From positions 62,001-85,858 of the forward strand of contig MEDY01000084.1 in the NCBI GenBank assembly GCA_001724265.1: 23,858 nucleotides of DNA. Direction: 5' to 3'. Position 1 is the first letter of the stretch; each line of letters starts with the position of its first letter. Under the pieces are notes generated by a model, which saw nothing but the letters and a program-made list of their open reading frames with translations, did not search any database and was not told the DNA's origin. A program made the translations under genes and the position numbers. Below are positions 2,475 through 23,858 of this stretch, one piece after another. This stretch comes from Rhizaria sp. SCN 62-66 (lineage: Eukaryota).

Positions 2475-3434
2475 TCAGACCTTGAAGATGCCGAGGCTCT
2501 TGACTGCGAAGCTCGTCACGACGCGCTTGATCATCTCGTTCGCGGCCTCCTCGCTCTGGACCGGCGCGCCTGCGGTGATGGACTCGGCGGCAAAAGCCTC
2601 AGGAACGTTGAGAATGATGAAGATGTCGGACTTGACCGCGGGCATGCGGTACGCAGCCAGGTACACGCGCAGCTTGTTCGCGGCAGACTCGCGGCCCTTA
2701 GACACTTTGCCGTGGCCGTCAGCCCAGCCAACGTACTACACACGTGGCAGCGTAAGTGGATAAGCAACGCAAGGGAGTTTGCATTATGAGCCAGAATTAA
2801 ATAGGGATGATATCGGTGCAATGTAGGCTAATTTGGATAAAACAAAATTTTACGATAGAAACGCGGAAGATGTTATAAAAAACGTTACGAATTTTCTTAG
2901 AGATTATATATAGCTGGGATATCTTGCGTGGAACGTACTGCCATGCATTTGGGGTCAAAGTTAGGCAGATCGGCGGCAGTCAGGAAGCCGGAAGACACGA
3001 GAGTGGGCTCCTCAGCATCCTGGTCACGCATAAGGTCCGTCCAGAAGTACGGCGCGGACTCCTCGTCCGTCTTGGAGACGTACTTATTGATTTCGACCAC
3101 GATGCTCTGGTCAACATCAGTGTCAGCGTAGACCTAAGAGCGGAAACAACCAAAGTCGATATGGAAACAAAATGTGAGCCCGAGTAAGTCTAACACTGTC
3201 AAACTGTTACCAATGTAATATATATCATAATATCTCAAAAGCGTGCGAAACTTGAATCATCCTGAGTCTCTGGAGCAAGAATAGTTTGGATATCATAAGG
3301 GCGTGACAATTGGTACGGACCTCCTGGTGGTTAGGCACATCACGGTACTGGCTGATGTCGTAGAAGCGCTCGGGGACCTCCAGCGTAAAGGCGCCACCGT
3401 AGAGCTCAACAGTCTTCCACTTCTCCTCACTCAT
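2475..3434 (-). CDS. MOG1: Mog1/PsbP-like Ran guanine nucleotide release factor, 189 aa; exons 3434-3321, 3133-2939, 2735-2475
   Basis: The joined protein reads MSEEKWKTVELYGGAFTLEVPERFYDISQYRDVPNHQE|VYADTDVDQSIVVEI...|...LRVYLAAYRMPAVKSDIFIILNVP...IFKV*. It has the Mog1 motifs LYGGA, D.S..R.VP.HQEV and DQSI.VE. Both introns are phase 0 GT..AG, and the stop is TGA. Confidence 0.9.
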
Positions 3435-4150
3435 AGTCGGTTTAGGGTGCTGGGGATGCGGGCAAGGGGCAGGGCAAGTTGGGTCATCGCGATTCAAGTG
3501 GATGCCATGTGAGTGGATCTGACATGACAGTTTCAGTGAAACAGAGTGATAAATAACACAAAATATAACCCATCATCTAGCATCCCTGGTGGTGCTCGTA
3601 ACATTCGCTCTTTACGGATATGTTCGAAGATCTCTAGATTCCCAATTTGGTTCGCGAGTCTCACTTCACTTTGGTCGGCTGGCAACTTTTTCAGAACCGG
3701 CCTCTAGATGACTGCAAACACTTGGGAAAACCAAGAGATATCGCGATACACCTCCGAAATCAGGGTGTGTTTACGATTTTTTGGGGTGATTTTATGTGTG
3801 TTCTACGATATATGTATTAAGCACAACTCAGATCAGCTATCTTGATGGCGGATCGCCTCTCGCCAGCACGCGTGGCAGGCTCGCAAACAAGTCGACGTCG
3901 CATCCACTCAAATCTCTCTGGCTCACGACTTCAATCGCTCATCCTATTCCTTCTGCCCTTGTACCCTGTACTCCAGGAGGTTTTCTTTTCTGAAATTCTC
4001 CGCATATTTGCGCAAGACCTCGTCTTGCCCCTTTAACCCCAGCGCCAGCGCAAGCACCCCCACGCTCGCCCCAGCCGTCGCTGTCGCTCCTACCACCGCA
4101 GTCTCCGCCTCCGTCCCCGCTCCGCCTTCGTCTTCGCGCCTCCTGCGCCG

Positions 4151-4300
4151 ATGTCGCGCAACTTTACCGGGCGCGGCTCCCCCGCGCTGGGCCCTCTGTC
4201 AGGCTACCAGCGTCCCTCTGCCGCCGCCGCCGCCAATCAGCAGTTCCGTCCCCCGGACCTGGCCCGCGCCGGCACGCTCTCACAGCTCCTGCCCCAACAG

Positions 4301-4331
<31 letters not shown>

Positions 4332-7300
4332 CCGCGCTGATGCAGCAGCAGTCGCTTGGCGTTAGCAGCATGCAGAACTCCTCCACCTTCTCAGCATCAT
4401 CATCATCGCAGCAACTGCAGCACCAGCAGCAGCACCAGCAGCTTCCCCCGTCTCTGTCCGCCCTCGGCCCCGCTCCCCTGACCACGAGCACCAGCAGCCT
4501 GCCCATCGGCGCCAGTCCCAGCGCCGGCGGTCCCGGCGACTCGACTTACCGCGCCTTCCACTTCGGCGCCGTCACCGACGATAAGAAGGGCCGGATTGCG
4601 TGCGTTGACACGGCGGGCGACCACGTACTCTGCGGCCTCACCGACGGCTCCCTCGTCTGGTACGAGACGGACGAGGACCGCGTCGTGTTCCGCGCGCGCT
4701 ACAACAAACCCATCGCCGCCAAGGCCATCGACCAACTCTACGCCGTTGACAACATCCTCCTCGCGCTCTCAGGCGGCGTCGTCCGCGCGCACGAGCTTCC
4801 GTCGCTGCGCGCGCTCGACGAGCTCGACGCCGCGAAGGGCGCGTACCTGTTCTCGGCGTCAAAGGGACGCGTGCCCGCGCCCGGAGTCGCGCTTGCAGCG
4901 GCGCCGCTGTACCTCGCGGTCGCAGTCAAGAAGCGCCCCATTCAGGTACGACCAACGACATGTAACATTGCAGTGTCATATATCGTTCTTTTTCATCAAA
5001 ACTTAAAATTATTGTATACTTTAATCTCATATTATTTTGTTTCATTCTTCTTGTTCTGTAACTCTGTTTTGTTCCTAGATTTTCGTGTTTGACGCGCAGT
5101 CCGGCCGCTTCCGCCTGCGGTCAGAGATCGCGTTCGCGGAGACCGTCAAGCAGATGGAGTGGTTCCCCATTCTTGCCAGCGCTGCCAACGCGATGCCGGC
5201 CGCGAACGCACTTACCGGTCCCGGAGCACATGCCGATTCCTCGCCTCCATTGGGCCCCGCTGGCGCTGGAGCTGGGAGTAGCTCGCGTGCTCAGCATATG
5301 CCGCCCGCGTTGCACCGCGGCCTCACCGCCGACCACGGCGACAACAACGATGATAACATCGACTACGAGTACAGCATGAGCGGCAGCGGCGCGCCTGAGA
5401 CCCCCGGATCAACCCACCGCAGTTTCGGGTTTAACAACAACAACAGCAGCAGCGGTGGCAGCGGACGCGGCGCGTCTGGTGCGATCCGCATGCCTCCGCC
5501 ACGGCTCGCCGGCGCGGGCGCAATCGTCACCACGACTGCCAGCTCCACCTCAGTCTCCAACGCCAGCGCCAACGCCGCCGGTGTGCCGAATGCGGGGGTC
5601 GTGGGCAGCGCCGGGTCCACGGCCGGCATGGGTTCGCTGGGCTCGGTCGGGTCCGCGGGGGTGGATTTCCGCTCGCACCCGACCTACGACCCCACGGCGT
5701 CGCCGGTGTTCACTCCGCTGCTTTCCTCGCCGTCGCCGCTCACGCGCGGTCTCGGGCCCGGCAGTCTCGGCAGCAACAACAACAGCTCCGCGAGTGCGAG
5801 CGCGAGCAATGTTCGTGGCAAGAGCTCGCGGGCGGGCGGCGGCGGCCTGGATCTCGCCTCACCCGCGGCCACTGCTTTCCAAAACAGCTCTAACTCTAGC
5901 TCTAGTTCTAGTAGCTCTGGCGCGAACCCGCTTCTCGCGTCGCTGCAGTCACCTACTCTGCTTCTCACCACCAAATCCGGCGTTTTCGTCGTCAACGTCC
6001 TCTCGGGCCAAATCACGCCCGTCGCGCTCCCCGCGCTGCCCGCTGTCGGCAAGACCAAGAGCAAGGACCGCGAAACCCCCTCCGCGGTCTGCCAACTACC
6101 CCACGGCGCGCTGCTCGTCTTCAAAGACACGGTCGGTTTCGCGGTGGGCGCCACCGGCGGGCCCGTGTCGGTGTCCTTCCTCGACTCGCCGGCGTCGCCG
6201 ACGTTCCTTGAGGCCGTGTCGTCGGGCCGGCTCGTTGCTCACCACTCGCCCAGTCTGTCGCCGCAAGTCGCGGCCACGGCGCTGGCGGGCCGCGGGATGT
6301 CGCCGCTGCGGCCGAGCTTCCTCGGCGGGCTGGCCGGCGCTCCCATCTCCTCACTGTCGCAACACGGCAGCAGTAGCCAGCACAGCGCGAGCGGCAGCGG
6401 CGCGCAGCAGCATTACCACCAGTACCAGCAGCAGCCCCCGGCGCAGTCGCATTGGCAAGCTCCGTCGTCCAGCGTGAGCGGGTTGCCTGGCGCGGCGATG
6501 GTGGCCTCGGTAGCCGCTGCGCCGTCGTTCGTGTCGTTCGTCGAGGTCTCTGAGGTGCCCGTTGCGGTGGGGTACTTACACCCCTACTTAGTCGCGCTTT
6601 TGCCCACGTGTGTGCAGGTGCGCAATGTCATGAGCAACACACTCGTTCAGGTACGCAAAAAATCTTACAGCATTCGAGTGCAATAACAAAACGACACACG
6701 CATGTTTTTCTGCTTGATTCATATTTTAATTCGACTTATATCTCACCACAACATCATTTTACGGATTTTTTAACTTCGATTTATTTAGGTCACGCCGTTT
6801 AAGGGCGGCATCTCCGGCGTGTTCAAGCGCGTCCCCTACGTCGCCTCGCCCACCGAACTGCGCGTGCTCGCCCCCACCTCGATCCACGCCCAGGTCAAGG
6901 CCCTGTTGAAGCGCGACATGCACCTGCAGGCCCTCGCGCTAATCGAGCAGTCCACGTCCGCACAGTGGCCGCGCGAGGCTGACCGCGCCCGCAAGATCGC
7001 CGAAATCTCCCTCCAACACGCCTACCACCTCTTCCTCTCGGGCGAGTTCGACCAAGCGCTAATGCAGTTCCAGCTTCTTCGCGTCGACCCGCGGCTCGTG
7101 CTCGCGCTCTTCCCGGCCCTTCTCCCGCCGCGGCTGCAGCTACGCGTGGCGCATCCCGTCCCCGTGCCTGCGGTGCCCGTCGCGCCCGAGGACGAACCCC
7201 GCGCGCTCGCCGCGTTGGTCCCCTATCTCGCGTCTGTCCGTGCCGCACTGACCCGCCTCGTTGCCGCCGCGCGCCGCCGCCGCGGTCGTGGTGGCGGCGG

Positions 7301-10300
7301 CGCTGGTGCTGGTACTGGCGCTGGCGCTGGGACGGCGCTGCGCCGCGCGCCGCACTCAGCGGGCGGCCTCCATAATACAGTGGCGGGGGTCGACGTGGGC
7401 GGCGCAGACGCGGAGACGCAGGCGCAGGTCGAGCGCGGCCGCGGGCTCGCCGCAGCGCTGGCCGTGGCGTCAGCCTCGCCCCGATCGCTAGCGGGCGCGC
7501 GCGGACGCGGGCTGCCGCCTCCGCTCTCCAACACTAACGCGAACTCCAACGCTACTGCGGAGGCGGAGGAAGGCGCGGGCGGTTTCTTGCTCGGCACCCC
7601 CGCCGGGGCCACTGCATTCGGCGGCGGCAGCGCTGCCAACGGCAACAACGCGGGCGGCAGCAGCTTCCGCGGTGCGCTGATCATCGAGGACTATGCAGCC
7701 GACAGTGAGGCGGCCACCGCGGCCCGCAGCCGTGGCAACAGCCGGTCTGCCGGCGACGCCGCTCTGCCCGTCACAGACGGCAACAATGACGGCAACGATG
7801 ATGACAACGATGACGACGATGATGATGATGAGCAGGAACAGGCAAGCACCCCCCGTTCCTTCACGCAGTCTCTGCTTGATCAGCGTCTCTCCGGCCTTGC
7901 GTCGTCGGCGCGCCCCGCACATTCCGCATCCAACTCCGGCGCTGCTGCTGGCCAGCTGCAGGGTCCGCCGTCCCCGCGCTCGCACTCGCCCTCCGCTCCC
8001 TCCGCCGGTAGCTCAAGCGCAGTGTCAGTGTCGACCGCGAACGCGACCGCGAGTGCGGGGGCCGGTGCGGGCCCTCGTGGAGCGCAATACCAGAAGCACC
8101 CCCTGGTCTCGGGCGACCGCGTGCGCATCTCGAACCTTGCTTCGGCGCTGCTGCACAAGGTCCAGCGGGGCACTCCCGGCGCCGCCGCCGCAGCCGCAGC
8201 CGCCGGTGGCGCCGCGGGCGCGGGCGCGGGCGTGCCCGGCGCAGGCGCTGCTGGTGCAGTTACGGCTGGCCTCGCGCTCTTTGACCCCGCCGTCGGCCTC
8301 GGCGCGCCCGCGCTTGACTTGGAACTGCTGGTGCTTGTCGACACCGTGCTGCTGCGCGTCTACCTCGCGATCAACCCCCACGCGCTGCTCGGCTTTGTCC
8401 AGGCACCGCAGCGATGCGACATCACCGTCGCTGCCGCCGCGCTGGGCGCCGCGGGCCGCCACGCCGAGCTCGTCGCGCTCTACCGGTCCCGCGGGCTACA
8501 TGTCGAGGCGCTCGAGCTGCTTCGCGCGCTCTCCGGACTCTCCACTCAAAACACCGCCAACATGGGCTCTAACAGCAGCGCCAACGGCTCTGCGGCCAAC
8601 GCGGGCGCGACTGCGGGCACGGCGGCCGCGGCCGCGGCGGCCGCGGCGGTGGTCGCCGCGTCGGGCGGACTCGCGGCCGTCCCGCGCGCGCTGCAAGGCG
8701 TATCGGCGACAGTGTCGTATCTCAACGCGCTGCTGAACCGGACGCCGCTGGACGCGGCGACGGTGGAGCTGGTGCTGGCCCAATCCCACTGGGTCCTGGC
8801 GCTCGAGGGATCGGACGATGCGCTGGACATCTTTCTCCCCATAGGTCCGGCTGCTGTGGTGTTTAACTCCGACGATGACGACGAGGACGACGACGAGGAC
8901 GACGACGACGAGGACGACAACGACGACGGCGCTGGCCCTGATGGCAACGGAGACGACGACGACGGCGACGACGGCGCTAGCGACGGCGACGACAACGACG
9001 ACAAGCAACAGCAGGGCGCAGATAGCAACGGCACCGGAGAGAACAAAGACAAAGCTCTCGTTGTCGTCGACCCCGACGCTGCTGCCGCCCGGCGCGCCCG
9101 CCAGCGCCGCCGCCGCCGCCGCGCCCGCGCCCGCGCCAACCGCGACCGCTCTCGTTTTTCATGCCAGTCGCAGTCTCAGTCTGCGACGGGCACGATTACG
9201 TATCCCGCGCCGCTTGCGCTGCAAGTGCTGGCGCACCTCCGCGCGCACTGCGACCCGTCGGTCGGCACGCGGTTCCTCGCCCAACTCATCGCCACCGGCG
9301 CCGCGGCCCCCGCGCTGCACAACGAGTACGCCGAGCTCTGTCTGCGCGAGATGGCCGCCGAGGCGCGCGCCGCCGGGCTGCCAGACGCGCTCGACTGGTA
9401 CGACACGGGCGCGCTCCCCGCGGGCGCCGGCGCTGCCAATGCTGCGAACAGGATCACGACGCTGACGGCAATCTCGGCGGGCGACGCCGACGCGGACCCC
9501 GACGCCGAGGCCGAGCTGCCTGACAACGCCGCGGTGGGCCGCGCGCGCCGCGTATCGGGCGCCGTCTCCGCCTCCGCCGTGCCGCCGCGGCTGGCGCTCG
9601 TGTACCAGGACTTGCTCTCGTTCCTCGCTGCTCCGGGCTCGCGGTACGCGCCAGAACTGCTGCTGTCACGGCTGCCGGCCGCGGGCGGGCTGCTCGAGGC
9701 GCGCGTGCTGCTGCTCGCGCGACTGGAGCGGCACGCCGACGTCGTCTCCACGCTCATCTCGCTGGGCCGACTCGCGCGCGCTGAGCAGTACTGCGACGCC
9801 GTGTTCACGCGAATCGGCGAAGGCGGTGCGCAGGTCTACTACCAACTGCTCGACCTGTACTTGGGGGCCGCGGGCGCCGCCGGGGCCGCCGCGGGGCCCG
9901 CGGGCGCGGCGGCGGCGCAGCAGGGGCTCGACGCGGCTCTGCGTCTGCTGAGCCGCTGCCACGACCGACTGGATCTCGCCCGTGTCGTCGCGTTGCTGCC
10001 TGTCGCGACGCCAATCCACCTGCTGGAGCCGTTCCTCATCCGCGTCGTGTCGGGCTCGCTCCACCGGCTGCGCTCGCAGCGTGTCGCCAAGAGCTTGCTG
10101 CGCGCAGAGCACTTGCAGGTGCAGGCCGAGCTCTGCGCAGAGAGCCAGACCCGCGTCGTGATTGACCGCGACACCGTGTGCCATGCGTGCGGGAAGAAGG
10201 TTGGCCTCGCTGCGTTCGCGCTGTCGCCGGAGAAGAGGGTGTTCCACTATGTGTGCTACCGCGCGCCCACCGGTGCCGCAGGCGCACCAGAGAACGTCTG

Positions 10301-10301
10301 A
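4151..10301 (+). CDS. VPS39: Vps39/Vam6-TGFBRAP1 family HOPS/CORVET subunit, about 1959 aa; exons 4151-4945, 5079-6650, 6789-10301
   Basis: CNH beta-propeller-like segments (CGLTDGSLVWY, LAVAVKKRPIQ, HPYLVALLP..VQVR) are followed by QV..LL....QAL.L and AYHLFLSGEFDQA. A Vps39_1-like region (VDTVLLRVYL...ELVALYRSRGLHVEALELL) and a clathrin-repeat-like region (ARVLLLARLERHADV, AEQYC) come next. The C-terminus is Vps39_2 with a zinc finger (CHACGKKVG...FHYVC). There are two in-frame phase-0 GTACG..TAG introns, and the stop is TGA. Vps39 versus TGFBRAP1/Vps3 orthology is not resolved. Confidence 0.88.
4295..4330 (+). repeat. CAG/CAA trinucleotide run encoding Q12 in the Vps39 N-terminus
   Basis: Read directly from the sequence. 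Confidence 0.85.
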
Positions 10302-10956
10302 GTGGAACGCGCGACCGCCAGTGACGGCTTTTAACATCATGTGACGAGACGCGAATGTGGAGCGTTGTGTCAGCACGTCAGTCAATGGTGTATATGCACT
10401 TCTGATGTGTTTTACTCTTAAAGCTTATGTATTTTGTTGTTAAACGGCATGCACTCTGATTGAATCGTATGAAAGGAATACACAGACTGTTTTACTGCGA
10501 AGTTCTCACTGATATTCTAGCTTTTTGCCAAAAGGATGTTACGAAATGAAGAGTTTATTTGTATTCTCTTGTAACGTATTGACGGCTGTACACATGAATG
10601 CATGCGAGACTAGAGCAGTAATAGTTAAATGAATTTGACTATGTAACGAAAGCATTGACCACTTATATAAAGTGTAACACTAATAAACACTGATAAGCCA
10701 TTTAACTGCCAGCATCAACAATCATGCTGGCAGTCGCGCTCCTAAGAATGTGTGTCGAAGCGGTATGCCCATTCTTGAGGGGACTTAGTCACTCACTCTG
10801 CATCACTCTTGTCTTGCAGCAGTGGCTTCCTCTGTACAGCTGCCTGTTTCGATCGAGATAAAGAGCACTCGCTCATTCGCAAGGATACCCTTGATGTCTC
10901 ACTCTCGAGAGGGGCTGACTAAAATCGCGATTCGCTGTCCATGCATCATATCTCAC

Positions 10957-11912
10957 TCACTCAAGCAGACGCACTTGCCCCTGCTCTACGAGGTGTGTGA
11001 GCGCGCTGTACGGAAGAGCAATGACTTCGCCACTGGAGAACGTGAGTGCACTGGGGCCGTCACCGAACGAGATCGTGTCGGCAGTGATCAAACCAAACAC
11101 AATCTCTGTGACATATGGACAACAGCAAGCAAAGCAGAAACAATAAGCAAAAGATTAAATTTGGGGAAAATAAATAGTGAGCAGGTGTTGCAGAAAAGTA
11201 TCGAGATAAAAGCTAATGCGAATCTTCCTACTCAGAGCTAGCGCATAATACTTCAGTATAAGTAGCGGTAGAAGAAGGCAGACAAGAACTCCAACGTACG
11301 CTGCATATTCGGCGCGTCATCGACCTCCTCAAGCGTGGCAAAACGCTTCGGCATCTCGCCCAACACAGTCCTCGTGAGCCTGCGCATGACCACTTCGTCG
11401 AAGAACCTCTGCGCAAACGCGCGCTCGGGACCCGATAGGCGGTCGAACATCGCGGGGGGCGTCTCGGGCGTGCCCATGAGGAAGAAAATGTGCGCCTGGA
11501 TCTTACCCAGCCGCGCGCGGAGGTACGCTTTGAGGACGTAGATGGTGCGCTGCAGGTCCAGGTCACGCAGCTCGTCCACGGGCTCTGGGAGCTCGGTCAG
11601 CGACGCGTCGTCGAGTCGGGTTTGAGTGCGCTCGATCGCGGCCGTCGTGTACGCCACGGCGGCGGCCTCGTAGGGCAGAAGCTCGGGCGCAGCGAGCTCG
11701 TGCAGCCACGCCGCGCGCAGCGTCTGCAGGTGCTGACGCGCGGCGGCCGCGGAGGCGGAGGCCGAGGCGGCGGCGCCGAGGCCGTAGCCGCTGCTGTCTG
11801 TCGCGTGGCCATGGTGATGGCCGTCGAAGTCACGCTGGGAGGACGGGTAGTGGTCGTGGCCGTAGCCCGAGGACTGGGAGTGCGCGTGGTTGTCGGAAGG
11901 GTAGTCGGACAT
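10957..11912 (-). CDS. SLD5: GINS complex subunit Sld5 (GINS4), 253 aa; exons 11912-11300, 11105-10957
   Basis: Contains AWLHELAAPELLPY, LDLQRTIYVLKAYLRARLGKI and RLSGPERAFA. A phase-1 intron (GTACGT..CAG) gives PNMQ-QIVFGL, matching Sld5 PNLDSYVF. The C-terminal B domain reads GEVIALPYSALTHLVEQGQVRLLE*, with stop TGA. Confidence 0.92.
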
Positions 11913-12485
11913 GCGGTGCCCTCCACTTGCTCCTGCTTGCTGCGGGGATGCCTTTCTGTTTGTTGCTCGGACGCTTTGCCGTGAAGAGTTGCCGGGTGCT
12001 CAACGTATCTGGGCGTGCTAAAAGAGTAGTCTTTATGGACAGTAGGAGGATATCATATCAAATAAGGGTTCGAGTGAGATAGAGCTTGAAGAAGGAGAAA
12101 GTGTGACACTCCCAAGCAGGCTGTCAAGTCACCTCAACAGTTTTGAAAATACCGACGAGACAATCGCAGTCTGAGGAAGCGCTAAAACGATTCCGGGTAG
12201 TTGATTATAACTCACAGCGAAAAATAGAGTTCATGTACATATCTACGAGAAAACTGAGGCAGGGGTCTTCAGCGAAAGTGGCAGACTTGGAGGCGCGAAG
12301 CGTAGGCTGATTTTTGCGATCCAACTTGCTTGCTGTCGCTCGACTGACCGTTGAGCTAACTTTGACACAGGTTTAATGTGTGCAGACTCCGTCGAATAGC
12401 AATGCAAGACTTGATTCCGCGTTTCAAATTTTCTGAACTAATAGGGCATTCTTTTATACTTCTTACACTACTGATCTTCACGCAG

Positions 12486-13417
12486 ATGCTGTCTCGGACG
12501 GTCACCACTCCTTTCCGCCTGATTGCGCGCACCACCGCCGCGCTGTCGCGCCCTGTTGCGGCCCTGCAGCGTGCGCACAGTGGCTGCGGCAACCCGTATC
12601 ACAACCACCACCACGAGCACTCGGCCGCGTGCGCTCCCGCGCCCGCGCCCGGTGGCAAGTTCCGTCTCCAGACCACCTCTGTCTCATCCAAGCCCTCCGA
12701 TGCTCCTGCTGCGCCCGCCGCTGCCGCCGCGCCCGCTGCTGCTGCAGCTGCCGCTGCTGCCACGGAGCCCGAGGGCACGTTCCGGTCCAACTCGTTTGTT
12801 GAGAAGGCCGTGTGCGATCCGTACGAGCTCGGCGGCAAGCCCCTCGCGCGCGGTATGGTCGCCGAAGAGATGGCCGCCCTGGCCCCCGAATGGGAGTACG
12901 ACGACGCCGCCAAGGTCCTGCGCCGCACCATCTCTTTCGTACCCATGCACAAGCGCGCCCTCGCGGAGCAGGAGGCACACGCGCGCAAGCCTGTGCCCGC
13001 GGTGCTCCGTATGCCGCCCCCGCCACGGATGCCCGGCGCTGTGACTGGGCCCATCGACGGCCCTGGCGCGTGCGCGCACCTTGCGCAAGTCATCTCCAAT
13101 ATCTGCACAAACAAGTACGTTCTGCGATATTATAACTAATTCGCTCGACATCTCAGTGTCACTGTAATGTTTCATTTTCAAGTCGTCGCTTTTGTCTCAA
13201 TATTGCTTCGAACACTTCACTAACATAGTTCATAATGTTATCTCTCTCGTTCTGTATGTTTAGCGACCACTGGTTCTACAACGTGTCGCTGGTGCCGCGC
13301 AAGAGCCAGGTGATTGTGGAGCTCAAGACCGCCGGCCGCGCTGGCCTCACGCACGCTGATTTCTACCTTGCGATTCAGATTGACGCTGTGCTGCTTACCA
13401 CGTTCCGCATCTACTGA
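12486..13417 (+). CDS. Pterin-4-alpha-carbinolamine dehydratase (PCD/DCoH)-like protein with mitochondrial-type presequence, 260 aa; exons 12486-13114, 13264-13417
   Basis: LAPEWEYDDAAKVLRRTISF and ...ICTNNDHWFYNVSLV....VIVELKTAGRAGLTHADFYLAIQID follow the PCD pattern (W......L.R.F.F; V.I.L.TH..GGL...D..LA..ID). The N-terminus is rich in Arg/Ser/Thr/Ala and has no acidic residues. The intron is phase 2 (GTACGT..TAG), and the stop is TGA. Confidence 0.75.
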
Positions 13418-13993
13418 TTGAGTTTAAGTTGAATCTGCAGTGCAGTACATTTACTCTGCCTTTGCAGAACTACGATGAGCTCGCTCGTGAGCGATATTAA
13501 CTTATTAATATGTGTGAAGACTAAGTTGTGCTGTGTTTACCTCATTCTATTGCTTCTCTAATTGAGTGGAGACGGCACGACTCGCCTGCTACAGTTTGGG
13601 CCAGTGGAAACAAGCAACAACAGAAAGTTATTTAATATGTGCAACGATCTTGTCCGGCGTCGTCACACTGGCGGGAAGAACATCAATTCTTGCCGACAAT
13701 GGTGAGAGGGTGACAACAGTTATTTGGTTGAATCTTTACCACCGACGAGTACTCACGTACGTATTTGTGTATTAATACAGTTCGTAAGCATGGCTGTTTG
13801 TGAGTGACCAGCAACGGAATTGTCTGCCTTCAACTATTGGTCTATTAAGAGTATTCACGCTTACCATATTCTTGATTTTTATTGATTTCCACCACTGTGA
13901 CCGATATTAATAGATCTGAGGTTAAGCGGACAAAAAAAAATCTCGCGTCCACCCCGTCCGAGCGAGCCGGAGCGTGGGAGGGCTGGGTCGAAG

Positions 13994-14003
13994 AAAAAAA
14001 AAA
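13994..14003 (-). terminator. RNA polymerase III oligo(T) terminator of the tRNA gene
   Basis: T10 run on the minus strand, 4 nt after the discriminator base. Confidence 0.8.
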
Positions 14004-14007
14004 GAAA

Positions 14008-14080
14008 CTCCCACGACGGGATTCGAACCCGTGTTCAAGATTTTAGAGATCTCTGTCCTGGGCCACTAGACGACGTGGGA
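14008..14080 (-). tRNA. tRNA with anticodon CUA (amber suppressor-type), tRNA-Glu-like body
   Basis: The minus strand reads TCCCACG TC GTCT AGTGGCCCA GGAC A GAGAT CT-CTA-AA ATCTT GAAC ACGGG TTCGAAT CCCGT CGTGGGA G (73 nt). It has a perfect 7-bp acceptor stem, a D arm with A14 and G18G19, a 5-bp anticodon stem (G27.U43 wobble) and a 7-nt loop with U33. The variable loop is 4 nt and the T arm is perfect with GTTCGAATCC. Anticodon = + strand TAG at 14044-14046. Confidence 0.93.
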
Positions 14081-14500
14081 TGAGAGCAACCTCGAGCAAA
14101 AACCTCGGGAATGATCGATAAGGAGCTGGCTACTGGTGTTCTAAAAATACATGCAACGTAAGTGCATTGTTAATTCTATCGAAAAAACTAGAGCTACTAA
14201 GAGTCTTCAAAAAAAGACTCGGTTTTTGGTTAAAAGTTTTGATGTTATGGAAAATTGGGGGCAAATAGATTTTTTGTTAAATAGCATTATTGAATCTATA
14301 CTAGATTTGTTGAGCAATAAAATAGCTATCTATTTTTAAAGGAGATGATAATAGAAGAGGGAAAATCAAATGTATTTTGAAAAACATCGAGGAGAGAGCT
14401 CACTTGAGCTGTTTCAATTTCATTAAAGCTAATCGTTACTTTCCAAAGCAAACGAGGTGAGCGGGAGAGGGATATCATCGGAGATTCTTAACATGGATAC

Positions 14501-14533
14501 GAGACTAGACGAGACTAGACGAGACGAGACTAC
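14501..14533. repeat. Short tandem repeat (GAGACTAGAC/GAGAC) in the formin 3' UTR
   Basis: gagactagac gagactagac gagac gagacta, read directly. Confidence 0.6.
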
Positions 14534-14572
14534 TATACAGGCGAGGGGGAGAGAGGGAGCTAGGCTTAATGG

Positions 14573-17012
14573 TTAATGGGGACGCGCAGCGGGCGGCGGC
14601 ATGTTGGGCGCAGGCGCAGCGCTCGGCACAACACTGGCGCGCGCAGCGGGGGGCGGAGCCCGTGGGAATCCTCCGGCGGCCGTACTGCCGCGCGCCGAGG
14701 GTGGCGGCGGCGCACCGCTGAGTCCGCCGACACCAGGTACAACAAGTACAGATCCGCGCGCGGCGTCGAACATGCGGCGCGTGTCCTGGTTCGCTGACCG
14801 TGCGGCACGGCGCGCGTTGATCTCCTTGAGAATGTCGGCCGAGTTGCCGCCGCGCAGCGTCGCGCCGACCTTGCGGCCGAGCCCGTCCGCGGGCGCACCG
14901 GCTGCAGCGCCCGCGGCCGCGCCAGAGGCACCGGCAGCGGCATCGTCGCCCGCACCAGTAGCAGCGGCGGCGGCGGTGGAGGAACCGCGGCTCTTGAGCC
15001 CTGAGGGCGACGCGCCCTCGATCGTCACCACCGGGCCCGACGCCGCAGCCGCGGCACCAGCGCCCGCGCCAGCAGCGGCATTGGCGTCGCCGGCGTTGGC
15101 GTCGTCGGCCGGCTTGCGGGACTTAAGCCCTGCGACGCCCATCGCGGCCGCAGCCGCCAGCGCGCCCATGTTCGGCGCAGCGCCAGCAGCACCGCCAGCG
15201 CCAGCAGCGGCGCCAGCAGCGGCGGCGCCGGGGCCGCCCGCCTTGGCGCGCGCTTCGGCGGCGGCCTTGATGCGCTCTTGGCGCTCCTTCTCGGCGACTT
15301 CCTTGGCGAGCTGCTGCTGCGCCTGGCGCAACTGCGTGATGAACTCGTTGAACAGCGCAAACGCGGCGTCCATGGGGAACGTCTTGGGGTCTTCGCCGAA
15401 CATCGCAGCCACGGCGTCGGCCTCGGTAGCCACACGTGCGTGCTCAGCGGCCAGCGCTTCGGCCTGCGGCGCGTACTCGGCCACAAAGGCGCCCATCACG
15501 GCCGCGAAACGGTCAGAGTCGGAAGGCTTGGCGGCCTTAACGTCGGTGGACGCGCGCGTCATCGTGTTACCGACACGCGCAACCTCAGACGCCAGCACAG
15601 CGGCCTCGACGCGAGACGCCGCGGGGAGATCCGTCAGCTCGTCCAGCAGCGTCTGCAGCGGCTTGCTGGCCGTGTCACGCTCCAGCAGCTGCACGAGGAA
15701 CTGCAGCAGGTTCGACTTGTTGTCAACGGTCTTGGTCGCCGCCAGCTTGGGCAGGAATGCGACCTTGAAGCCGTACGCACCGCCCTTGGCGCCGCCGCCG
15801 TTGAGGTAGTTGCCGAGCGCGAGCACGTACTCGAGCGTCTTGCGCAGTGCCTTGGACTCGCGCAGCGTCGTGAGCGTGCGCAGACACAGCTGCACCTTGC
15901 CGCGCGCTTCCTCGAGCTGCGCTGCAAACGTCTGCTTGAACAGGAAGAGCTCGAGACGGCGCTGCAGACGCGGGATCTGCGCCATTGCGAGGAAAAACCG
16001 CTCAGGATTGCCGAGTTGCTCGGGCGGCCCGTCGTAGCCCTGCACCATCTCGATCTCTTCGGGCGTGGGGATACACTTAAGCAGCGTGGTCACCTTCTCA
16101 ACGGGCAGCGCCTTCTCGTCCATGCTGAGAATCGCGTCGCGCAAGGCCTCGTGAGTCAACGGACGGAAGCGTGCGATCGCGATGGCGACGTTCTGCCCGC
16201 GCTGGCCGTCGACCAGCGTCACCACAGAGGGCGCGCCGCCGCCGACGGTGCTCGCGCGCCGGTCGTCCTTGCCGGGCGCCGCGCTGTCCTTGCCTTCGTC
16301 CTCGGCGCCCGCAGTCTTGGGCTTGGAGAGACAGAAGAGGGACTCGAACTCGGAGGCGTCGAGCGGCACCTTCTGGTCAGAGAGGTCGTTCCAGACGGTC
16401 TTTTCGACCTCGAAATCGTCGACCTTGGTCCAGTGCAGCGCGCGCATCTTGGTCCCAGGCGCGACAGACTTCTTAGTGTACGGCAGTTTCGCCTTGGGCT
16501 TGGGCGCCGGCGCCGCGGCGGGGGCGGAGAAGCCGAACAAATCGCCGGGTGGCGGGGGCGCGCCGAAGAGGTCTCCGGGCGGCGGGGGAGGCGCGCCGAA
16601 GAGGTCCGCGGGTGGGGGCGGGGGGCCGCCGCCGAAGAGGTCCGCGGGCGGCGGGGGGATGCCGCCCGCGGCGCCGGGACCGGGGCCGAAGAGATCCATG
16701 GGCGGAGGCGGGATGCCCCCGGGACCGGCGGAGGGGCCGAAGAGGTCCGCGGGCGGGGGTGGGATGCCGGGGCCGCCCGTGCCGGGGCCGAACAGGTCCA
16801 TCGGCGGCGGGGGAATCGCGGGGCCGCCGGAGCCGGGACCGAATAAGTCCATGGGAGGCGGCGGGATCGCGGGGCCGCCGGTGCCAGGACCGAAGAGGTC
16901 CATCGGGGGCGGCGGGATACCAGCAGCAGCGGCAGCGGCGGCGGCAGGGGCGGCGGCAGACGAGGGGCCACCGCACTTGCCACACAGCGCTGACGACGAC
17001 GAGGAAGCAGCA

Positions 17013-17045
<33 letters not shown>

Positions 17046-19302
17046 GGCGCGGAGCCAGCGGCGGCAGCGGAGGCAGCGGCCTTGGCGACGGCCTCCGCGG
17101 ACTCCGCGCGCGCAGTCTCAGTCTGCTTGTTGGCGTCAACAAGCTGGGCGCGGAGCTTCGCGATCTCGTCCTCGGCCGCCGCAAGCTTCATCCCGGCCGC
17201 GTGCGCGCGCTGGCGCTGCTCCTCGGCGGCCTTGGCCGCCTCGGCCAAGTCGGCGGCGGCGGCGGCAGCGGCGGCGGCGACGGAGCCCGAGCGCGCGGCG
17301 GCGGCGTCAGCGGCGGCGAAGAGCTCCTGCAGCGTCAAGGGCGCGGCGTCGGCGGGGTCGGGGTTTCCGAGCACCGCCGCGGCCGCCGGGTCCGTCGAGG
17401 GATCCGAGGCATGCGCCATCACAAGCCTGCGCGCCAGCTGTAACAACGTAGCCCACACAGCGTCGCCCTGCACGGGGTCGGTGGGTGCGGCGGCGAGCAG
17501 CTGCAGCAGCGGCAGCAGGTGCTGGCCGAAACGGGGCGCGACGTGCGACTGCAGGAAGCCGAGCAGTGCGGAGAGGTCCGAGTAGTCGAGCCCGCCGCGC
17601 GTGGCTTCGAGCGCGTCCTCGGCCGCCGCGGTATCGTACAGGTCCAACTGCACCTGGATCTCGGCCCACACGTCGTCTTTGCGCGCTGCCGCGGCCGCAG
17701 CGCCGACGGTGCCCGGCGCGCCCGCCGTGCCGGGGGCGACCGACGCCGCGCTCGCGCCCGCGGGGAGCTTCGCGGGCGTGCTAGGGAAAGCAGGATTCGC
17801 TGCCGCGGTGGCAGCGGCGGAGCCCGCGGTGGGGGAGCTAGGCGGGAGGATCGACTGGCGCCCGGGAGTGGCGCGGGTGCGGGACGCGGCGGAGGCGGCA
17901 GCGAGGGCGTCTTCGGCGACGTTCTCACCCACTGCAACGACGAGCGTGGATGTTGATGAGGCGGGTGCGCTGAGAGAGGGCTGTGTCATCAGACTCACGC
18001 CGACCGCGGAGGAAGAGAGAGTGGCGGGCACGAGGTGCGCGTACACGCCATCCTTGAGTCTGTCAAGCGCAGCAGGAAGCCCCGCCGTCTCGAACATCCG
18101 GCGCGTGTGCAAGCGGTCTTCGAGCAAGTCCGGTGCGTTGATGAGCGCGTTTACGAGCACGAGGGCCTCGCGCTTAACCTGCGGCGGCAGCGCGCCCTCG
18201 GTGGCGGACAGCGGCAGCGAGCCTGGGGACGCGGCCGCGCCCGCGCGCGGGGTTTGCGGCGGCGTCGAGGCTGAGTACGCAGAAGACGACGCTGTGTTGG
18301 GGTCTGGGCGCATGAGCATGTTGACGAGGAACTTGAACGGCACGCGGCCGCGCGCGGGGTCCGTCAGCGCCGAGTAGACGAGCGGGAAACCAGTGGTGAG
18401 GTCGGCGGACGCGATGAAGGCGCAGAGCGAGAGAACGAGCTCTTTGCTCTCACTGTCACTGCTACCGGCTGCAAGCAGTACGACGAGGGGCTCGACCGCG
18501 GCGGGCAGCTGCAGCAGCGAGCGGAGACCAACCTCGGTGTACGCCAGCGCGAGCACACAGCGCAGCGCGCGGGCGACAAAGACGTGCGAGCGTGCGGGGC
18601 GTTGCGCGGACTCAAGCAGCGCGCCCATGCCGCCTGCGCGGAGGAATTGGCCCATCCACGTCTTGGTCTGGCCGCCGATGACGAGGCGCAGACGCTCCAG
18701 ATCTTCCTCGTTGACTGAGTCCGACGTGAGCGTCGTCGCCCAGTGGTTCGGGTCGTCGCGCTGGCGGTCGCGCGCGCGCTCAGACGACTCCTGGCGCTGC
18801 GCTTGCACGAGCATCCATTTTTGGGCGAGCGGGAGAGCGCGCATGGCGTCGCGCGCGGAGGCCTTGATCTGGCGCTCCTCAATGAGCTCCTCCAGGAGCT
18901 TGTCGATGCCAGTCTGGTCGGGCATGTCAGAGTTGGTGGGCATCGCGGAGGCCGCGGCGTCCTTCTTGCGGCAGTTTTGCACGCAGGCCTCGCACAACCG
19001 CGTACCAGGAACGATATTCTGCGCGGGGAAGTTGTTCGTCTTGGAGCTGCATTCCTTGCAGAAGCTGCTCTTGCAAACACTGCGCAGGTCAAGGTGGGTA
19101 AGGTGGAGGTTAAAACAGAGGTCTAGTAAGCGACTGGCGCGTAGTTTTGTCAGGAAAGGAGCAGTGGGTGATGAGTGACAGGTGGGGAGCTCGAGAAGCA
19201 GTCTGGGATAGTGGGGGAAACGTACAAGCACTCGTACTTCTTTGTGAAGAAGCCGAATGTTTTGTCACAGCCGGGGCCTTGACAGGCCTTCTCGTCCGGC
19301 AT
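14573..19302 (-). CDS. Formin with N-terminal FYVE-type zinc finger, GBD/FH3, FH1 and FH2 domains, about 1527 aa; exons 19302-19226, 19079-14573
   Basis: The spliced N-terminus MPDEKACQGPGCDKTFGFFTKKYECFVCKSSFCKECSS...TRLCEACV has eight Cys with FYVE spacing. GBD/FH3 motifs are MRALPLAQKWML, WMGQFLRAGGMGALL and LVNALIN...RLHTR..F...GL. FH1 is polyproline. FH2 motifs are MRALHWTKV, RGQNVAIAI, PTPEE, ERFFLAM, LGNYLNG..GAYGFKV..L.KL..TK and LLQFL. The intron is phase 2 (GTACGT..CAG), and the stop is TAA. Confidence 0.93.
16531..16920 (-). repeat. Nine tandem PPPP-x-DLFG repeats (first units 51 nt) forming the formin FH1
   Basis: The translation shows IPPPPMDLFGPGTGGPA-type units, with DLFG occurring 9 times. 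Confidence 0.9.
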
Positions 19303-20039
19303 CTGTGTCGTGGAGCAGTGGGCGAGGTGTCGAGAGAGGAGGAAGGGGATGTTAGCTCGGACGATATGCAGGACGTCTGTTGCAGACGCATTTCTTCGCG
19401 TGAAGCCGGATTTTGTTTGAATAGAGATAATAAGTTTGGATAGCCAACTCAATTTACAATATCAACTTTCAAGAAAACACGGAAAAAAGCGGACGAAAAC
19501 GGCACAGCACCAGTGGATAAAAAGCACACGCGCTTGGGGTTTCATGTGCCCTCGCAGCAGCCCTCCTCCATCGCCGCCGCGCGCACTCAAACGGCTCTAA
19601 AACACACACATTTCACTTGCTTTGAGGATGATAAACAAGGGTTTTAAAAGTAATTTTAGAATATAGCTTTAAATGCTTTGTGTAGTATCAATATTCAGTA
19701 TTATTTTTACGACTAGTTTTTGTTTCTTACTGAAAAGGTACTTTGTATGAGTGGATAGATAGCTATGTTAAAAAAGTGACGAGCGAACGCGAGTCTCGGT
19801 CTCTTCGTCTCGTCTCGCGGGACAACTGGCCCGCTTCCACGCGTGTACCCTGTACGGGCGCACACACGCACGGCCCTTGAGGCTTGCAGCCAACACTCGT
19901 CATTCATCACGTAGAACAACACAGCGCAGCGCAATGCACGTGCACCGTGTCAAGTCAGTCCGTAGTATAGTATCAATGTCAGAGTCTGTGTGACAGCAAG
20001 CCTGTCTTAATATTGAAAAGCTCAGATGGTCTCCGCTGC

Positions 20040-21131
20040 TCACATCGGCTGCTCGACGCTCTCCAGCTCGCCGTTATGCTCACCGTCATACCCGTCTGCG
20101 TCGTCCGCCGCCGCCGCATCATCCGCCATGCCGTGCCCGATATCCCCGCCGGGCGCCTGCCCATACGCCAGCGTCCGCGCGTCGGGGTCGCCCTCACGCC
20201 GCGCACTGTTCCCGCCCCCGTTGGCGTCGCCGCGGGCGGAGCCGCGCGCGGTGCCGGCGCGGCTGTCGCCAGCAGAGCCGGTGCCAGTGTTGCGGCCGTC
20301 CGAGGCCATGGGCGCGTGCGTGCGCCCGTGCGACGCCAGCAGCGCCTCCTCGAGCTCGGCGTACGCGCGGCGCTGCTCCTCCTGCGCCTGCGCGAGGAGA
20401 TCGATGAGCTCGCGCTCGCGGCGCTCCATCGACGACACGCGATGCTCGTGGTCCTGCGAGCGCTCAGCCTCCTCGAGCAGCTTGCCGCGGAACGTGTCTT
20501 CCGCGCGCTGCCGGCGCTGATCGAGGAGTTGCTCGCGGGAGCGGCGGCCGTCCTGGTGCTGCTGCACGATCGCGGCCTTCATCTCGCGCGCGCGCTGGAG
20601 GCTTTGCTCGCGCTGCATTTGGATCAGCTCAAGGTTCTTGGCGTGCTCTTCGACGAGCTTGCGCGCTTCTTGGCGCTTGAGGGACTCGATCGCCTGCTCG
20701 TTGCTCTGCCGCGACAGCGCCACGCGCTCGCGGGCAATGCGGGACGCCTGGCGGATGCGTTCGGCTTCGCGCTGGCGGCGTGCAAGTTCGGCTTCCTTGG
20801 CGCGGTTACGCTCTTCGATCTGGCTGCGGTGCTCGCGAATCGCCTTGGTGCGCGCACGCGCCTCGTTGATCTTCGCCTGGGCCTTCTCCAACTCGATCTG
20901 TAGCGGGAGTGCAAGCAAGGCAGACAGTGGGGACGGGTGAGGTTAGGTGTACACGAGAGAAAGATTTGCAAGAGCGATGAGGTCAAAGACAAGAGAGAGC
21001 GGTGAGTCGGCACAGGGGCAACAGGGAAAGGGACGTACCTTGAGGAGCAAGATGCGGTTGGAAAGCTTTTTTTCCTCAATTTCTTTAAGGCGACGGTACG
21101 CCCGTGCTGCGTTAAGCATGACGTCGACCTC
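20040..21131 (-). CDS. Conserved coiled-coil protein of unknown function; exons 21131-21039 and 20897-20040; possible first exon 21496-21470 (MQSNSVLSI)
   Basis: An in-frame phase-0 GTACGT..CAG intron joins ...EEKKLSNRILLLK to IELEKAQAKINEARAR. A long E/R/Q/K heptad-rich helix follows, ending in ERRERELIDLLAQAQEEQRRAYAELEEAL, with stop TGA. The true start is uncertain. Confidence 0.7.
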
Positions 21132-21777
21132 CTAAGGTGGGCAACGGGAAAGTAAGGCAAACGCAATGGTGACTGGTGAGAAAAGAGACCTCTTGCACAG
21201 ATATACCGGGGAACATTTACAGAAAAACTGTTTAGATATAATAAAAACGCGCCAGCGACAGAGCCAAAAAAAGAGATGAATATCGCGTCACACGGATGTG
21301 GAGCGCCAGGCAAAGGCTTTCACGAAAGCGATAACGGCTGTTAGCACTCCAGAAACGGGACTCGACTGCAGACCAGCTGCTGCTGGTCGACCGACCGAGC
21401 CCAAGGCTTTCCAAGGACGAAGACTGCCGCGACGCGGAATCGGGCTTGTGTGCGCCAACGAGACCTTACGATAGAGAGTACCGAATTGGATTGCATTGTT
21501 GAGCAATTTTTGTGCTTAGTGTGCTAATTATGTGTTCCATGTATGGGGTCTAGAAAGTCTACGACGACTCTCAAAAAGCCCTACCGCAGAGCATGCAGAC
21601 TGCGTGCCCAACTGGCCCAATCCGCGTGCATTCCGCAGTGCGCAGCAGCTATTCTGCTAGCCCATACTTTTCATGCGCTTAATTAGTCCAAGTAGTGTCC
21701 CAAAACCACTCTTGTATCCAGCTCACCCGACATTTTCCCCTTCTATTTGTTCCTTTATCGCACTCTTCTGCAGCCAC

Positions 21778-22578
21778 ATGTCCGCTTCTGCCGAGCCTGT
21801 GCCCGCCGCCACCGCTGCCGCCGTGGCCACCGAGACGCCCGCGGTGACGGTGCCGACCGCGTCCACCGTGCACAAGCTGCAGTCCGAGTGGGCGTTCTGG
21901 TACGACGAGCGCAAGCCTCACACGACTGACTTTACCGACTACAAGCAGTCCCTCACCAAGCTCTCTTCCTTCAACACTCTCGAGGGCTTCTGGCAGACGT
22001 ACGGCAACATCGCGAACCCGGACTCGTACCCGCGCGAGTGCTCGCTGTACCTCGTCCGCGGCAAGTCCACCCCGGCCTGGGAGTCCTTCCCCAACGGCGG
22101 CTGCTGGATCATCCGTGTCCGCAAGCGCAACACCCTCATTGACCGTCTCTGGGAGGAGCTTTGCTTCGCGTGTGTCGGCGAGCTTTTCGCGCACCCCGAC
22201 GTCTGCTGCATCGGTGTCTCCACGCGCAACCGCGAGGACGTGCTCACCGTGTGGAATATTGACAACTCGAACCCCAACACGCGCTTTATCATCGGCGAGA
22301 AGCTCCGTGAGCTGCTGAACCTCGACGCCTCCACTCAGGTCGACTACAAGACGTTCCTGTCCGCGATCCAGGACGGCTCTTCGTTCAAGAACGCGCAGTC
22401 GTACATGTACGCCAACGCCAACGTCAACAGCACTGCGATGCCCGCGCTGCCTGTCGTCAACGCCCCTGCGCCCTCGAGCAACAATAACGCGCGGAATAGT
22501 ATGGCGAGTCTGCGCAAGAGTCCCGCGTTCGTGCCCGCTGCTGCGGCCGCCGCGCCCGCGCCCGCGCCCCTCGAGTAA
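21778..22578 (+). CDS. eIF4E: eIF4E family cap-binding protein, class III-like, 266 aa
   Basis: Contains HKLQSEWAFWY, FNTLEGFWQTY, LYLVRG..PAWE, NGGCW, LWEELCFACVGE and GVSTRNREDVLTVWN. The start was placed at the ATG where GC-rich codon usage begins, and the stop is TAA. Confidence 0.93.
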   Translation: MSASAEPVPAATAAAVATETPAVTVPTASTVHKLQSEWAFWYDERKPHTTDFTDYKQSLTKLSSFNTLEGFWQTYGNIANPDSYPRECSLYLVRGKSTPAWESFPNGGCWIIRVRKRNTLIDRLWEELCFACVGELFAHPDVCCIGVSTRNREDVLTVWNIDNSNPNTRFIIGEKLRELLNLDASTQVDYKTFLSAIQDGSSFKNAQSYMYANANVNSTAMPALPVVNAPAPSSNNNARNSMASLRKSPAFVPAAAAAAPAPAPLE

Positions 22579-23334
22579 GTAAGTCAGTCAGTCAATCAGC
22601 TAACGATTCAGTGACACAAGCAGTCTGTCGTGGACTTATCGCACAGTGTCGAGAGAGAGAGATGACAGGAGGGAGAAGTTATAAAGGGGCGTGCGAGGCT
22701 CTGCGCAGGCTGCCAATTGGATGATCGGATTATCGGATTACATAGGTGAGAGTAAGAGAAAAAGACAGAGATGTTGTCAGCCCACACACGCATGTTTGAG
22801 ATAGCAACCACTCACACGCGCGTGCATCATCATGCTTTTAGCAATTGCGTGCGTGGCCAGTTAGTGCGAGTGCGTGAGTGGGGCTGCAAGAGGAGGATTT
22901 ATGCAAGAAAAGTACAAAATGAACAATACATATCAATACATAACAGAAAAACAATAACTTTGACTTGATCTTCTATCTGAATAGTTTGAAAATAGCTCAA
23001 GTGCGCACTCGTGACTGTGAATTACGTCAAGGAAAGAATAACGACAGGATCCTCACACGCACCGACAAGTGCAGCCCAATCCAAACAATTGTTTTGAAGG
23101 ATGTCTTGTTCAAAGTGAGCGATATTTAACTTGAAACTGTGGTATAGCAAATTTAAATTAGATATGTACCCGATAATTGCAGTTGAATATTGATAGGCGC
23201 ACATTACAGCAATGCATCGTTGAAAGCATGATGGTGCTGCCAAGCCGCCAGATCTTGAGCATGCCGAGACGAGCTTCACCAAAATGTTTTTATCGTGCCA
23301 TTGCCAACATCAGATGACACTATTGTAAAGTACT

Positions 23335-23858
23335 ATGGGGGTAAGCCACTGCGCTTTGTCTGCTATATTCTGTTTATTTTGCCTTAAGTTACAGCCGACA
23401 ACAGATGCGTCACTTTGGGTTGCGACCGACCAATCTTCCTGAGGTCATCCTTTGCCTCTTTCACCTTCGCAACCAGTTGCATTGTTTCGCATGTCGCGCT
23501 TTGATTAGGCACCCACCATGACATCACGAGTGTCGAGCTGTAAGATATGTGGCAAAACAATTCACTCCACAGGCAAAGGTCGCCCCCAAAGTCTTTGTCA
23601 AGCTTGCTTCAAGGTAATTGCAGTGCTACGACTTCTCGTGCTCGCTCTCAATATTTTGCAAATCACCTTCCTCTGCATCAAATGACTTTCAAACTTCAAT
23701 ATCGTTGCATCAAAAAGACAATTCCTGCTTTACTTAGACGTAAATCTTGCTGACTGTTCAACATTGATGTTGCTTCACCGCTTCTCCTGCCACAGGCCGA
23801 AACTAAACTGCAAGACGAGGTCGTCCCGTCCGCTCACCATGGTCACGACACTCCGTCA
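23335..23858 (+). CDS. Partial gene (5' end) with a C4 zinc-ribbon motif; putative exons 23335-23340, 23509-23613, 23796->23858
   Basis: GTAAGC..TAG and GTAATT..CAG introns join in frame to give MG|APTMTSRVSSCKICGKTIHSTGKGRPQSLCQACFK|AETKLQDEVVPSAHHGHDTPS..., with a CxxC-x15-CxxC motif. The frame runs off the window. Confidence 0.55.

Follow-up and report, generated by a model that had tools for sequence, protein, structure and literature searches.

By analyzing a 23,858-base stretch of DNA (hereafter the window) from an uncultured wastewater protist, we found a single tRNA gene, called by ARAGORN at 14080..14008 on the minus strand (73 nt), whose anticodon, cta, pairs with UAG and not with UAA. 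Its body is plausibly of Glu type, and the seven protein-coding genes modelled in the window use TAG neither as a stop nor as a sense codon. We give an even chance to the reading that this is a real amber-decoding Glu-type tRNA, facing a codon avoided in both roles by the genes within view; the gene would then be transcribed, charged with glutamate and active on UAG, and the avoidance would extend over the genome. Given the Glu-type body, the amino acid inserted at UAG would most likely be glutamate. Since the codon would be nearly unused, such a state could represent early codon capture, a very low use of UAG as Glu, or a constitutive amber suppressor, the last being tolerated because the genes end in TGA or TAA.

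According to the original prediction, positions 14008-14080 hold a nuclear tRNA gene that is intact, has the anticodon CUA and is laid out in Pol III style. ARAGORN, the Rfam tRNA model RF00005 and the sequence itself bore out the gene, the structural features listed for it and its location, while the strand was corrected to minus. RF00005 aligned over its full length (positions 1-71 of 71) and scored 58.0 bits, where 29 is the gathering score; the E-value was 2.3e-10 in the window and 1.2e-11 in a 1.2-kb neighborhood. The gene is a canonical class I cloverleaf, with stems of 7/4/5/5 bp, a 7-nt anticodon loop with U33, a D-loop GG and the T loop UUCGAAU, and no non-canonical pair was flagged. 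In the cmscan alignment the 7-bp acceptor stem starts with U1-A72, and the discriminator is G73. The D stem, GUCU/GGAC, includes U11-A24 and U13-G22 and closes a 9-nt loop containing GG, whereas the 5-bp anticodon stem, GAGAU/AUCUU, has a single G-C pair and carries the loop C-U-C-U-A-A-A. The variable loop consists of 4 nt, GAAC, and lacks position 47, and the T arm is ACGGG-UUCGAAU-CCCGU. No CCA is encoded; instead, G73 is followed by TTT, C and T10, the latter appearing as A10 at 13994-14003 on the plus strand. The layout, in which the A and B boxes are internal, CCA is absent and four or more T follow downstream, reads as that of a eukaryotic Pol III (type 2) gene.

ARAGORN labelled the tRNA as Pyl, a label that we rejected. 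In tRNA-Pyl, which is accompanied by pyl genes, the anticodon stem has 6 bp and the variable loop 3 nt, the D loop is small and lacks GG, and the T loop is atypical. Here the anticodon stem has 5 bp and the variable loop 4 nt, the D loop is 9 nt long and includes GG, and the T loop is canonical. ARAGORN derives the label from the anticodon alone. Of the four stems, a single-sequence MFE fold (z -1.53) recovered no more than those of acceptor and anticodon; as folds without D and T arms are common for tRNAs, this was not counted against the gene, the covariance-model score being the relevant test. No second RNA was found near the tRNA in a low-threshold Rfam scan (E up to 1). About 60 nt downstream of the T10 there is a T9 run, which follows a GC-rich stretch of 52 nt (13935-13993, minus strand) and has no Rfam match at E up to 1.

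Table 1. Coordinates of features in the window and of similar tRNA genes on prokaryotic metagenome-assembled genome (MAG) contigs.
Feature	Positions	Strand	Evidence
tRNA gene, anticodon CUA, plausibly Glu-type body	14008..14080	-	ARAGORN, RF00005, identical contigs in runs X3 and X4
Anticodon C34-U35-A36 (TAG on plus strand); loop C-U-C-U-A-A-A at 14042-14048	14044..14046	-	cmscan alignment, sequence
A-box region, tRNA positions 8-18 including D-loop GG	14063..14073	-	Sequence reading against the general consensus
B-box region, T stem-loop GGTTCGAATCC	14019..14029	-	Sequence reading against the general consensus
Pol III-type terminator TTT, C, T10, directly after G73	13994..14007	-	Sequence; terminator-like scan (acceptor stem plus T tail)
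RNase MRP RNA gene, RF00030	1577-1929	+	56.2 bits, gathering score 50, full model length
Mog1-like gene (by eye), three exons, stop TGA	2475..3434	-	Sequence; in-frame TAG at 2738 is the intron 2 3' splice site
Vps39/CNH gene, three exons, stop TGA	4151..10301	+	Pfam; TAGs at 5076 and 6786 are 3' splice sites
GINS Sld5 gene, two exons, stop TGA at 10959..10957	10957..11912	-	Pfam, sequence
Pterin-carbinolamine-dehydratase-like gene (by eye), two exons, stop TGA at 13415-13417	12402..13417	+	Sequence
Formin gene (GBD-FH3-FH2), small 5' exons, stop TAA at 14575..14573, no internal TAG	14573..19303	-	Pfam FH2 1.5e-85; ORF; introns
Coiled-coil protein gene, two exons, stop TGA	20040..21119	-	Hand model
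eIF4E gene, stop TAA	21778..22578	+	Pfam 1.2e-38; alignment
76-nt CUA tRNA gene, encoded CCA, Glu-type D arm (Clostridia)	L002:748-823		MAG contig
76-nt CUA tRNA gene, encoded CCA, Glu-type D arm (Clostridia)	L004:5836-5911	-	MAG contig
76-nt CUA tRNA gene, encoded CCA, Glu-type D arm (Anaerolineae)	L005:4380-4455		MAG contig

Features of the tRNA-Glu type include U1-A72, G73, U11-A24, U13-G22 and a variable loop lacking position 47. All of these, together with the 4-nt variable loop and the type of D arm, are present here and make a Glu-type body plausible, the diagnostic value of the features being a matter of general knowledge. The Leu type, on the other hand, is ruled out on sequence grounds by the short variable loop. 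GluRS usually reads the anticodon, with YUC as an identity element, and the tRNA bears CUA. Its charging may therefore be poor or involve another amino acid, and charging with Glu must tolerate A36, as it does in other Glu(CUA) tRNAs.

The anticodon arm deserves separate treatment. CUCUAAA is the anticodon loop of efficient amber suppressors, and A36-A37-A38 constitutes the i6A37 motif. That motif is indeed present, as the original prediction had noted, but the argument drawn from it, namely that A38 reflects adaptation to UAG decoding, proved weak. The loop is a single change away from a CUG-type (Gln/Lys-like) loop, so ancestry may explain A38 as well as adaptation does. The stem is more telling. 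Typical tRNA-Glu anticodon stems are G/C-rich, and by this general comparison a recent change of one base in such a tRNA would not be expected to leave an A/U-rich stem in which only one pair is G-C. The stem is thus stronger evidence against a fresh one-step mutant than A38.

The region 13000-16000 is present in 13 of 14 listed public runs, all of them wastewater, bioreactor or sludge metagenomes, and four of these runs contain at least half of its sampled words. Four runs were compared with window positions 3859-23858, all in the form of contigs, which can hide rare variants. In two of them the tRNA is spanned by contig pieces, 13712-15311 in run X3 and 13315-14700 in run X4, which show no other letters and no gaps, and no variant is listed in 14008-14080. 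Both contigs bridge the tRNA to the formin coding region and stem from studies other than the likely source of the window. A one-off assembly error or chimera is excluded by this identity, and base 14044, for which the original prediction had considered a sequencing error, is thus not an error of a single assembly, the contigs of two of the four compared runs being identical there. No listed contig piece crosses the tRNA in the remaining two runs, X5 (probably DNA) and X7 (poly(A) RNA). No allele other than CUA was seen in the three assemblies, which date from 2015 to 2025; the identical flanks across runs reflect the same population rather than selection. At the far end of the window (23430-23858), many X3 and X4 contigs match at 90-95%, the differences being densely spaced substitutions as well as small indels, a pattern that points to related strains or to a conserved element present more than once. 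Near 23519 there is an apparent gene start, followed by an intron that begins near 23606.

That the contig comes from a eukaryotic nucleus is evidenced by an RNase MRP RNA gene, spliceosomal introns, and genes for formin, Vps39, Sld5 and eIF4E. Introns have GTACGT 5' sites and AG 3' sites, and the exons (GC3 0.85, 65-73% GC) stand out from introns and spacers of about 44-50% GC. The exons also carry long Ala, Gly, Gln and Asp runs, and their borders can be read from composition alone. Four introns were read as ending in TAG, at 2738, 5076, 6786 and about 13263. Relative to the consensus the RNase MRP RNA has large insertions; apart from serving as a nuclear marker, the gene might be of use in placing the organism.

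On the evidence of one gene, eIF4E, the organism is probably a cercozoan. The best named match to the eIF4E protein is from Guttulinopsis vulgaris (EukProt; 68% identity over half of the query), followed by Cercozoa sp. M6MM (48%), Paulinella micropora (48%) and then a stramenopile (39%). A tree of 11 eIF4E rows resolved only the clade of the window protein with its relatives P0010 and P0011 (95/98) and left Guttulinopsis unplaced. The best named match in a search with the formin FH2 domain was Balamuthia, at 31%, and a protein search with Sld5 returned only the window's own protein. When genome contigs were searched with a pattern from the eIF4E alignment, 24 stretches matched and none was confirmed. 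Rosculus vilicus, the one published sainouroid genome that our searches turned up, was considered as the organism and rejected, as it has 37.7% GC. A formin (P0037, 45% identical) and a partial eIF4E (P0031, 65% identical) appear to share one NCBI contig of 8,381 bases, which suggests a relative with the same formin-eIF4E neighborhood.

The seven genes (Table 1) were modelled by hand from ORFs, GC3, frame and GT..AG splice sites. Long-range joints derived from the runs were not usable as splice evidence, having sides of only 20-26 letters in low-complexity stretches rich in Ala, Gly and Gln. Five of the genes end in TGA, two in TAA and none in TAG. The C-terminus of eIF4E ends exactly as in the relatives P0010 and P0011, and that of the formin aligns with P0001 to within a few residues of the end; by these matches TAA and TGA are true stops. 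TAG ends 25-30% of the genes in GC-rich eukaryotes, and with that generally known share the chance of finding none among seven would be about 1 in 8 to 12. The stop codon of the formin gene, on the same strand as the tRNA gene, lies 493 nt upstream of it. Two small Cys-rich 5' exons (CxxC-type, zinc-finger-like) are apparent in the formin gene at 18944-19303 on the minus strand, with a GTACGT..CAG intron before the long ORF; an N-terminal zinc finger is unusual on a formin of the diaphanous type.

Internal exonic TAG was found in none of the seven genes and at none of their about 4,335 codons in the window, an absence that rests on frames read with TAG open, as the frames making up the 4,335 codons are themselves delimited by all three stops. 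The TAG-open frames contained six TAGs, all at borders between low and high GC3, three of them being 3' splice sites (2738, 5076 and 6786) and three lying upstream of the eIF4E start. A screen for stops flanked on both sides by 25 open GC3-rich codons yielded off-frame and antisense cases only. As a yardstick from within the window for a synonym with T in place of C at the first position we used TTG, which makes up 28 of the 196 TTG and CTG codons (0.143). At this share about 24 TAGs would be expected beside 145 CAG (Gln) codons and about 29 beside 175 GAG (Glu) codons, so that P(0) is below 1e-11; the 95% upper bound on sense use of TAG is about 3 in 4,335 codons. An established and freely used UAG sense codon is hence very unlikely here, while rare or very recent sense use may occur. 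A reassigned code is recognized by in-frame UAG in most genes, at conserved positions of one amino acid, by UAG no longer serving as a terminator, by a cognate tRNA, and by changes in the N-domain of eRF1 (encoded outside the window) that weaken recognition of UAG. Of these, the window holds the cognate tRNA with anticodon CUA and lacks in-frame UAG in its seven genes, whose seven stops are a small sample on UAG termination.

The reading with most standing besides the preferred one, though a doubtful one, is that the gene is a mutant copy with little or no activity, derived from a multi-copy tRNA gene for Glu(CUC) or for some other one-step neighbor of CUA. The organism would then have the standard code, with TAG as an ordinary stop outside the window, and the lack of TAG at seven gene ends would be due to chance. 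The coding sequences, without a sense TAG in about 4,335 codons, agree with this, and seven stops are only weak evidence of avoidance. Exact-match scans of metagenome, genome and viral contigs, using a scaffold pattern with the anticodon arm left free, likewise recovered no further copy, parental tRNA or orthologue. A decayed copy is at odds, however, with a gene in which every scored structural position is intact (58 bits) and whose anticodon arm, with its one G-C pair and A38, differs by more than a single change from the typical Glu arm as generally known. It would also have to be reconciled with the CUA allele being the sole one in the three assemblies. Moreover, in two published comparisons such genes occur in the recoded species and are absent from their standard-code relatives, as described for five phyllopharyngean genomes (PMC11687900) and for all four Obscuromonas species (PMC12153298).

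Among the closest known systems are the classical amber suppressors of standard-code organisms, namely laboratory-selected alleles in yeast, worm and E. coli that are one mutation away from a normal tRNA. Like these, the window tRNA has a CUA anticodon that would compete with the release factor and a CUCUAAA loop with A37-A38. Unlike them, it comes from environmental samples, which over several years showed no other allele, and its anticodon stem seems to have diverged.

A dedicated readthrough system, in which the tRNA would serve a few UAG-containing messages (C-terminal extensions or a few recoded genes) and UAG would otherwise remain a stop, would account for an intact, specialized-looking anticodon arm in the midst of genes without general sense use of TAG. 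We consider it quite unlikely, as the window holds no TAG-interrupted or TAG-terminated target gene, and a cognate tRNA alone cannot choose its targets. To our knowledge, there is no eukaryotic precedent for a cognate tRNA dedicated to UAG readthrough.

That UAG stands for Glu or Gln throughout the genome as an established reassignment, which was the main reading of the original prediction, is very unlikely. In its usual form this claim finds no support, the seven genes and about 4,335 codons having no internal TAG where about 24 (Gln) to 29 (Glu) were expected. What speaks for it is the presence of the cognate tRNA(CUA), together with the stop usage of the seven genes, in which TAG is missing while TAA and TGA both occur. 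Among the evidence against itself, the original prediction had named TAG being a normal, frequent terminator without conserved in-frame use. Of this, the first part was not observed (0 of 7 stops), and the second, the lack of in-frame TAG, was seen in the window. The best named eIF4E match being a sainouroid also favors reassignment to some extent, in that one sainouroid lineage reads UAG as Leu (PMC5304391). The cases described are rich in internal UAG, however. It occurs in 78.2-91.1% of the genes in five phyllopharyngean ciliates (PMC11687900), and in Iotanema UAG makes up about 8% of the Gln codons (PMC5304391). The lineages that the original prediction listed as having reassigned UAG turned out to be an incomplete set, since reading of UAR as Gln has also been reported from an aphelid, ulvophytes, hexamitin diplomonads and an oxymonad (PMC11687900 and PMC5304391).

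The closest rhizarian parallel is exLh, a member of the Sainouroidea together with Guttulinopsis, in which UAG encodes Leu and UAA and UGA are stops (PMC5304391). The same source gives 384 in-frame UAG in 71 genes, with 56 UAA and 15 UGA stops, and a predicted CUA anticodon; of the G. vulgaris transcripts it covers, nearly all end in UAA and one putatively in UAG. The window resembles exLh in its rhizarian setting and in its best named eIF4E match, a sainouroid, which is a likeness in one gene whose tree leaves the match unplaced. In exLh, too, UAG alone is affected and UAA and UGA terminate. The window differs from exLh in that its tRNA, with the short variable loop, is not of Leu type and in that no in-frame TAG was seen.

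Peritrich ciliates read UAR as Glu. Oligohymenophorea sp. PL0344, with UAG = Glu and UAA = Lys, has 10 tRNA-Glu(CUA) genes, 69-93% identical to its own tRNA-Glu (PMC10553269), and Blastocrithidia (UAR = Glu) carries a tRNA-Glu(CUA) (PMC12153298). The window shares with these three a nuclear tRNA(CUA) on a Glu-like body, a likeness by description and not by sequence. Unlike their genomes, which are full of in-frame UAG, the window has none in seven genes. The Glu-recoded lineages are furthermore ciliate or kinetoplastid and AT-rich, whereas the window is probably cercozoan, has GC-rich exons (GC3 0.85) and shows a single copy of the tRNA gene.

Lastly, CUA tRNA genes of a similar kind occur in prokaryotes. 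A loose pattern composed of the D arm and the CUCUAAA loop matched five prokaryotic loci, part of the resemblance thereby being imposed by the pattern itself. Three of the loci (L002, L004 and L005; Table 1) share the D arm, the loop and a similar T arm with the window tRNA, and the two from Clostridia, L002 and L004, also its variable loop GAAC and most of the core. Within tRNA positions 8-65, L002 is identical to the window tRNA at 30 of the 39 positions outside the pattern. The three genes differ from it in their length of 76 nt, their encoded CCA, their acceptor stem and their bacterial contigs. Another locus, L003:322-416 on a contig of an uncultured archaeon, is a tRNA-like gene of 95 nt with the same D arm and CUCUAAA, after which there is an intron-like insert; ARAGORN called it Phe (aaa), and alternatively it could have the anticodon CUA and an intron. 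Against a bacterial origin of the window tRNA it counts that its acceptor stem is different, that it encodes no CCA and is followed by a T10 run, and that it is physically joined to the formin exon. An artefact of any kind, be it an assembly chimera, a bacterial or phage contaminant or an organelle-derived fragment, is to be given next to no credence, for although the gene is similar to the bacterial CUA tRNAs in its D arm, variable loop and T arm (with L002 identical at 30 of 39 positions, and in part because of the search pattern), these encode CCA and have a quite different acceptor stem, and the X3 and X4 contigs independently join the tRNA, with its T10 and without CCA, to the formin exon with no differences.

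The preferred reading of a real amber-decoding tRNA on an avoided codon includes a more specific one, which we put forward only tentatively and regard as possible rather than probable, namely a second independent capture of UAG in Rhizaria, by a Glu-type tRNA(CUA), that is presently at the codon-capture stage. TAG would here have been purged from gene ends without having re-entered coding sequence yet, and this would have taken place under GC and not AT pressure. In a full-text term search neither a Glu-type tRNA(CUA) from Rhizaria nor a variant code in a cercozoan from wastewater turned up, and a search of the literature on nuclear stop codons found no reported case of the route 'codon disappearance, then capture', which is one that has been inferred.

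Changes of the nuclear code have their molecular signature in cognate stop-codon tRNAs, and in the sole documented code variant of Rhizaria UAG has another meaning than Glu, i.e. Leu. The window thus points either to more lineages that tamper with UAG or to a rare case of a natural, stable amber suppressor in a eukaryote with the standard code. For the annotation of this organism, gene callers should not take TAG for granted either as a stop or as a sense codon until the genome has been checked. Both material and data exist, since wastewater and bioreactor metagenomes have yielded the organism repeatedly over a decade. The absence of TAG from gene ends as well as gene bodies in the window is the intermediate state that the codon-capture model predicts, and if the avoidance holds genome-wide, the model would be directly testable in this organism. 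Should the capture-stage reading be true, the organism would offer a natural snapshot of a stop codon that has first disappeared and is then being captured.
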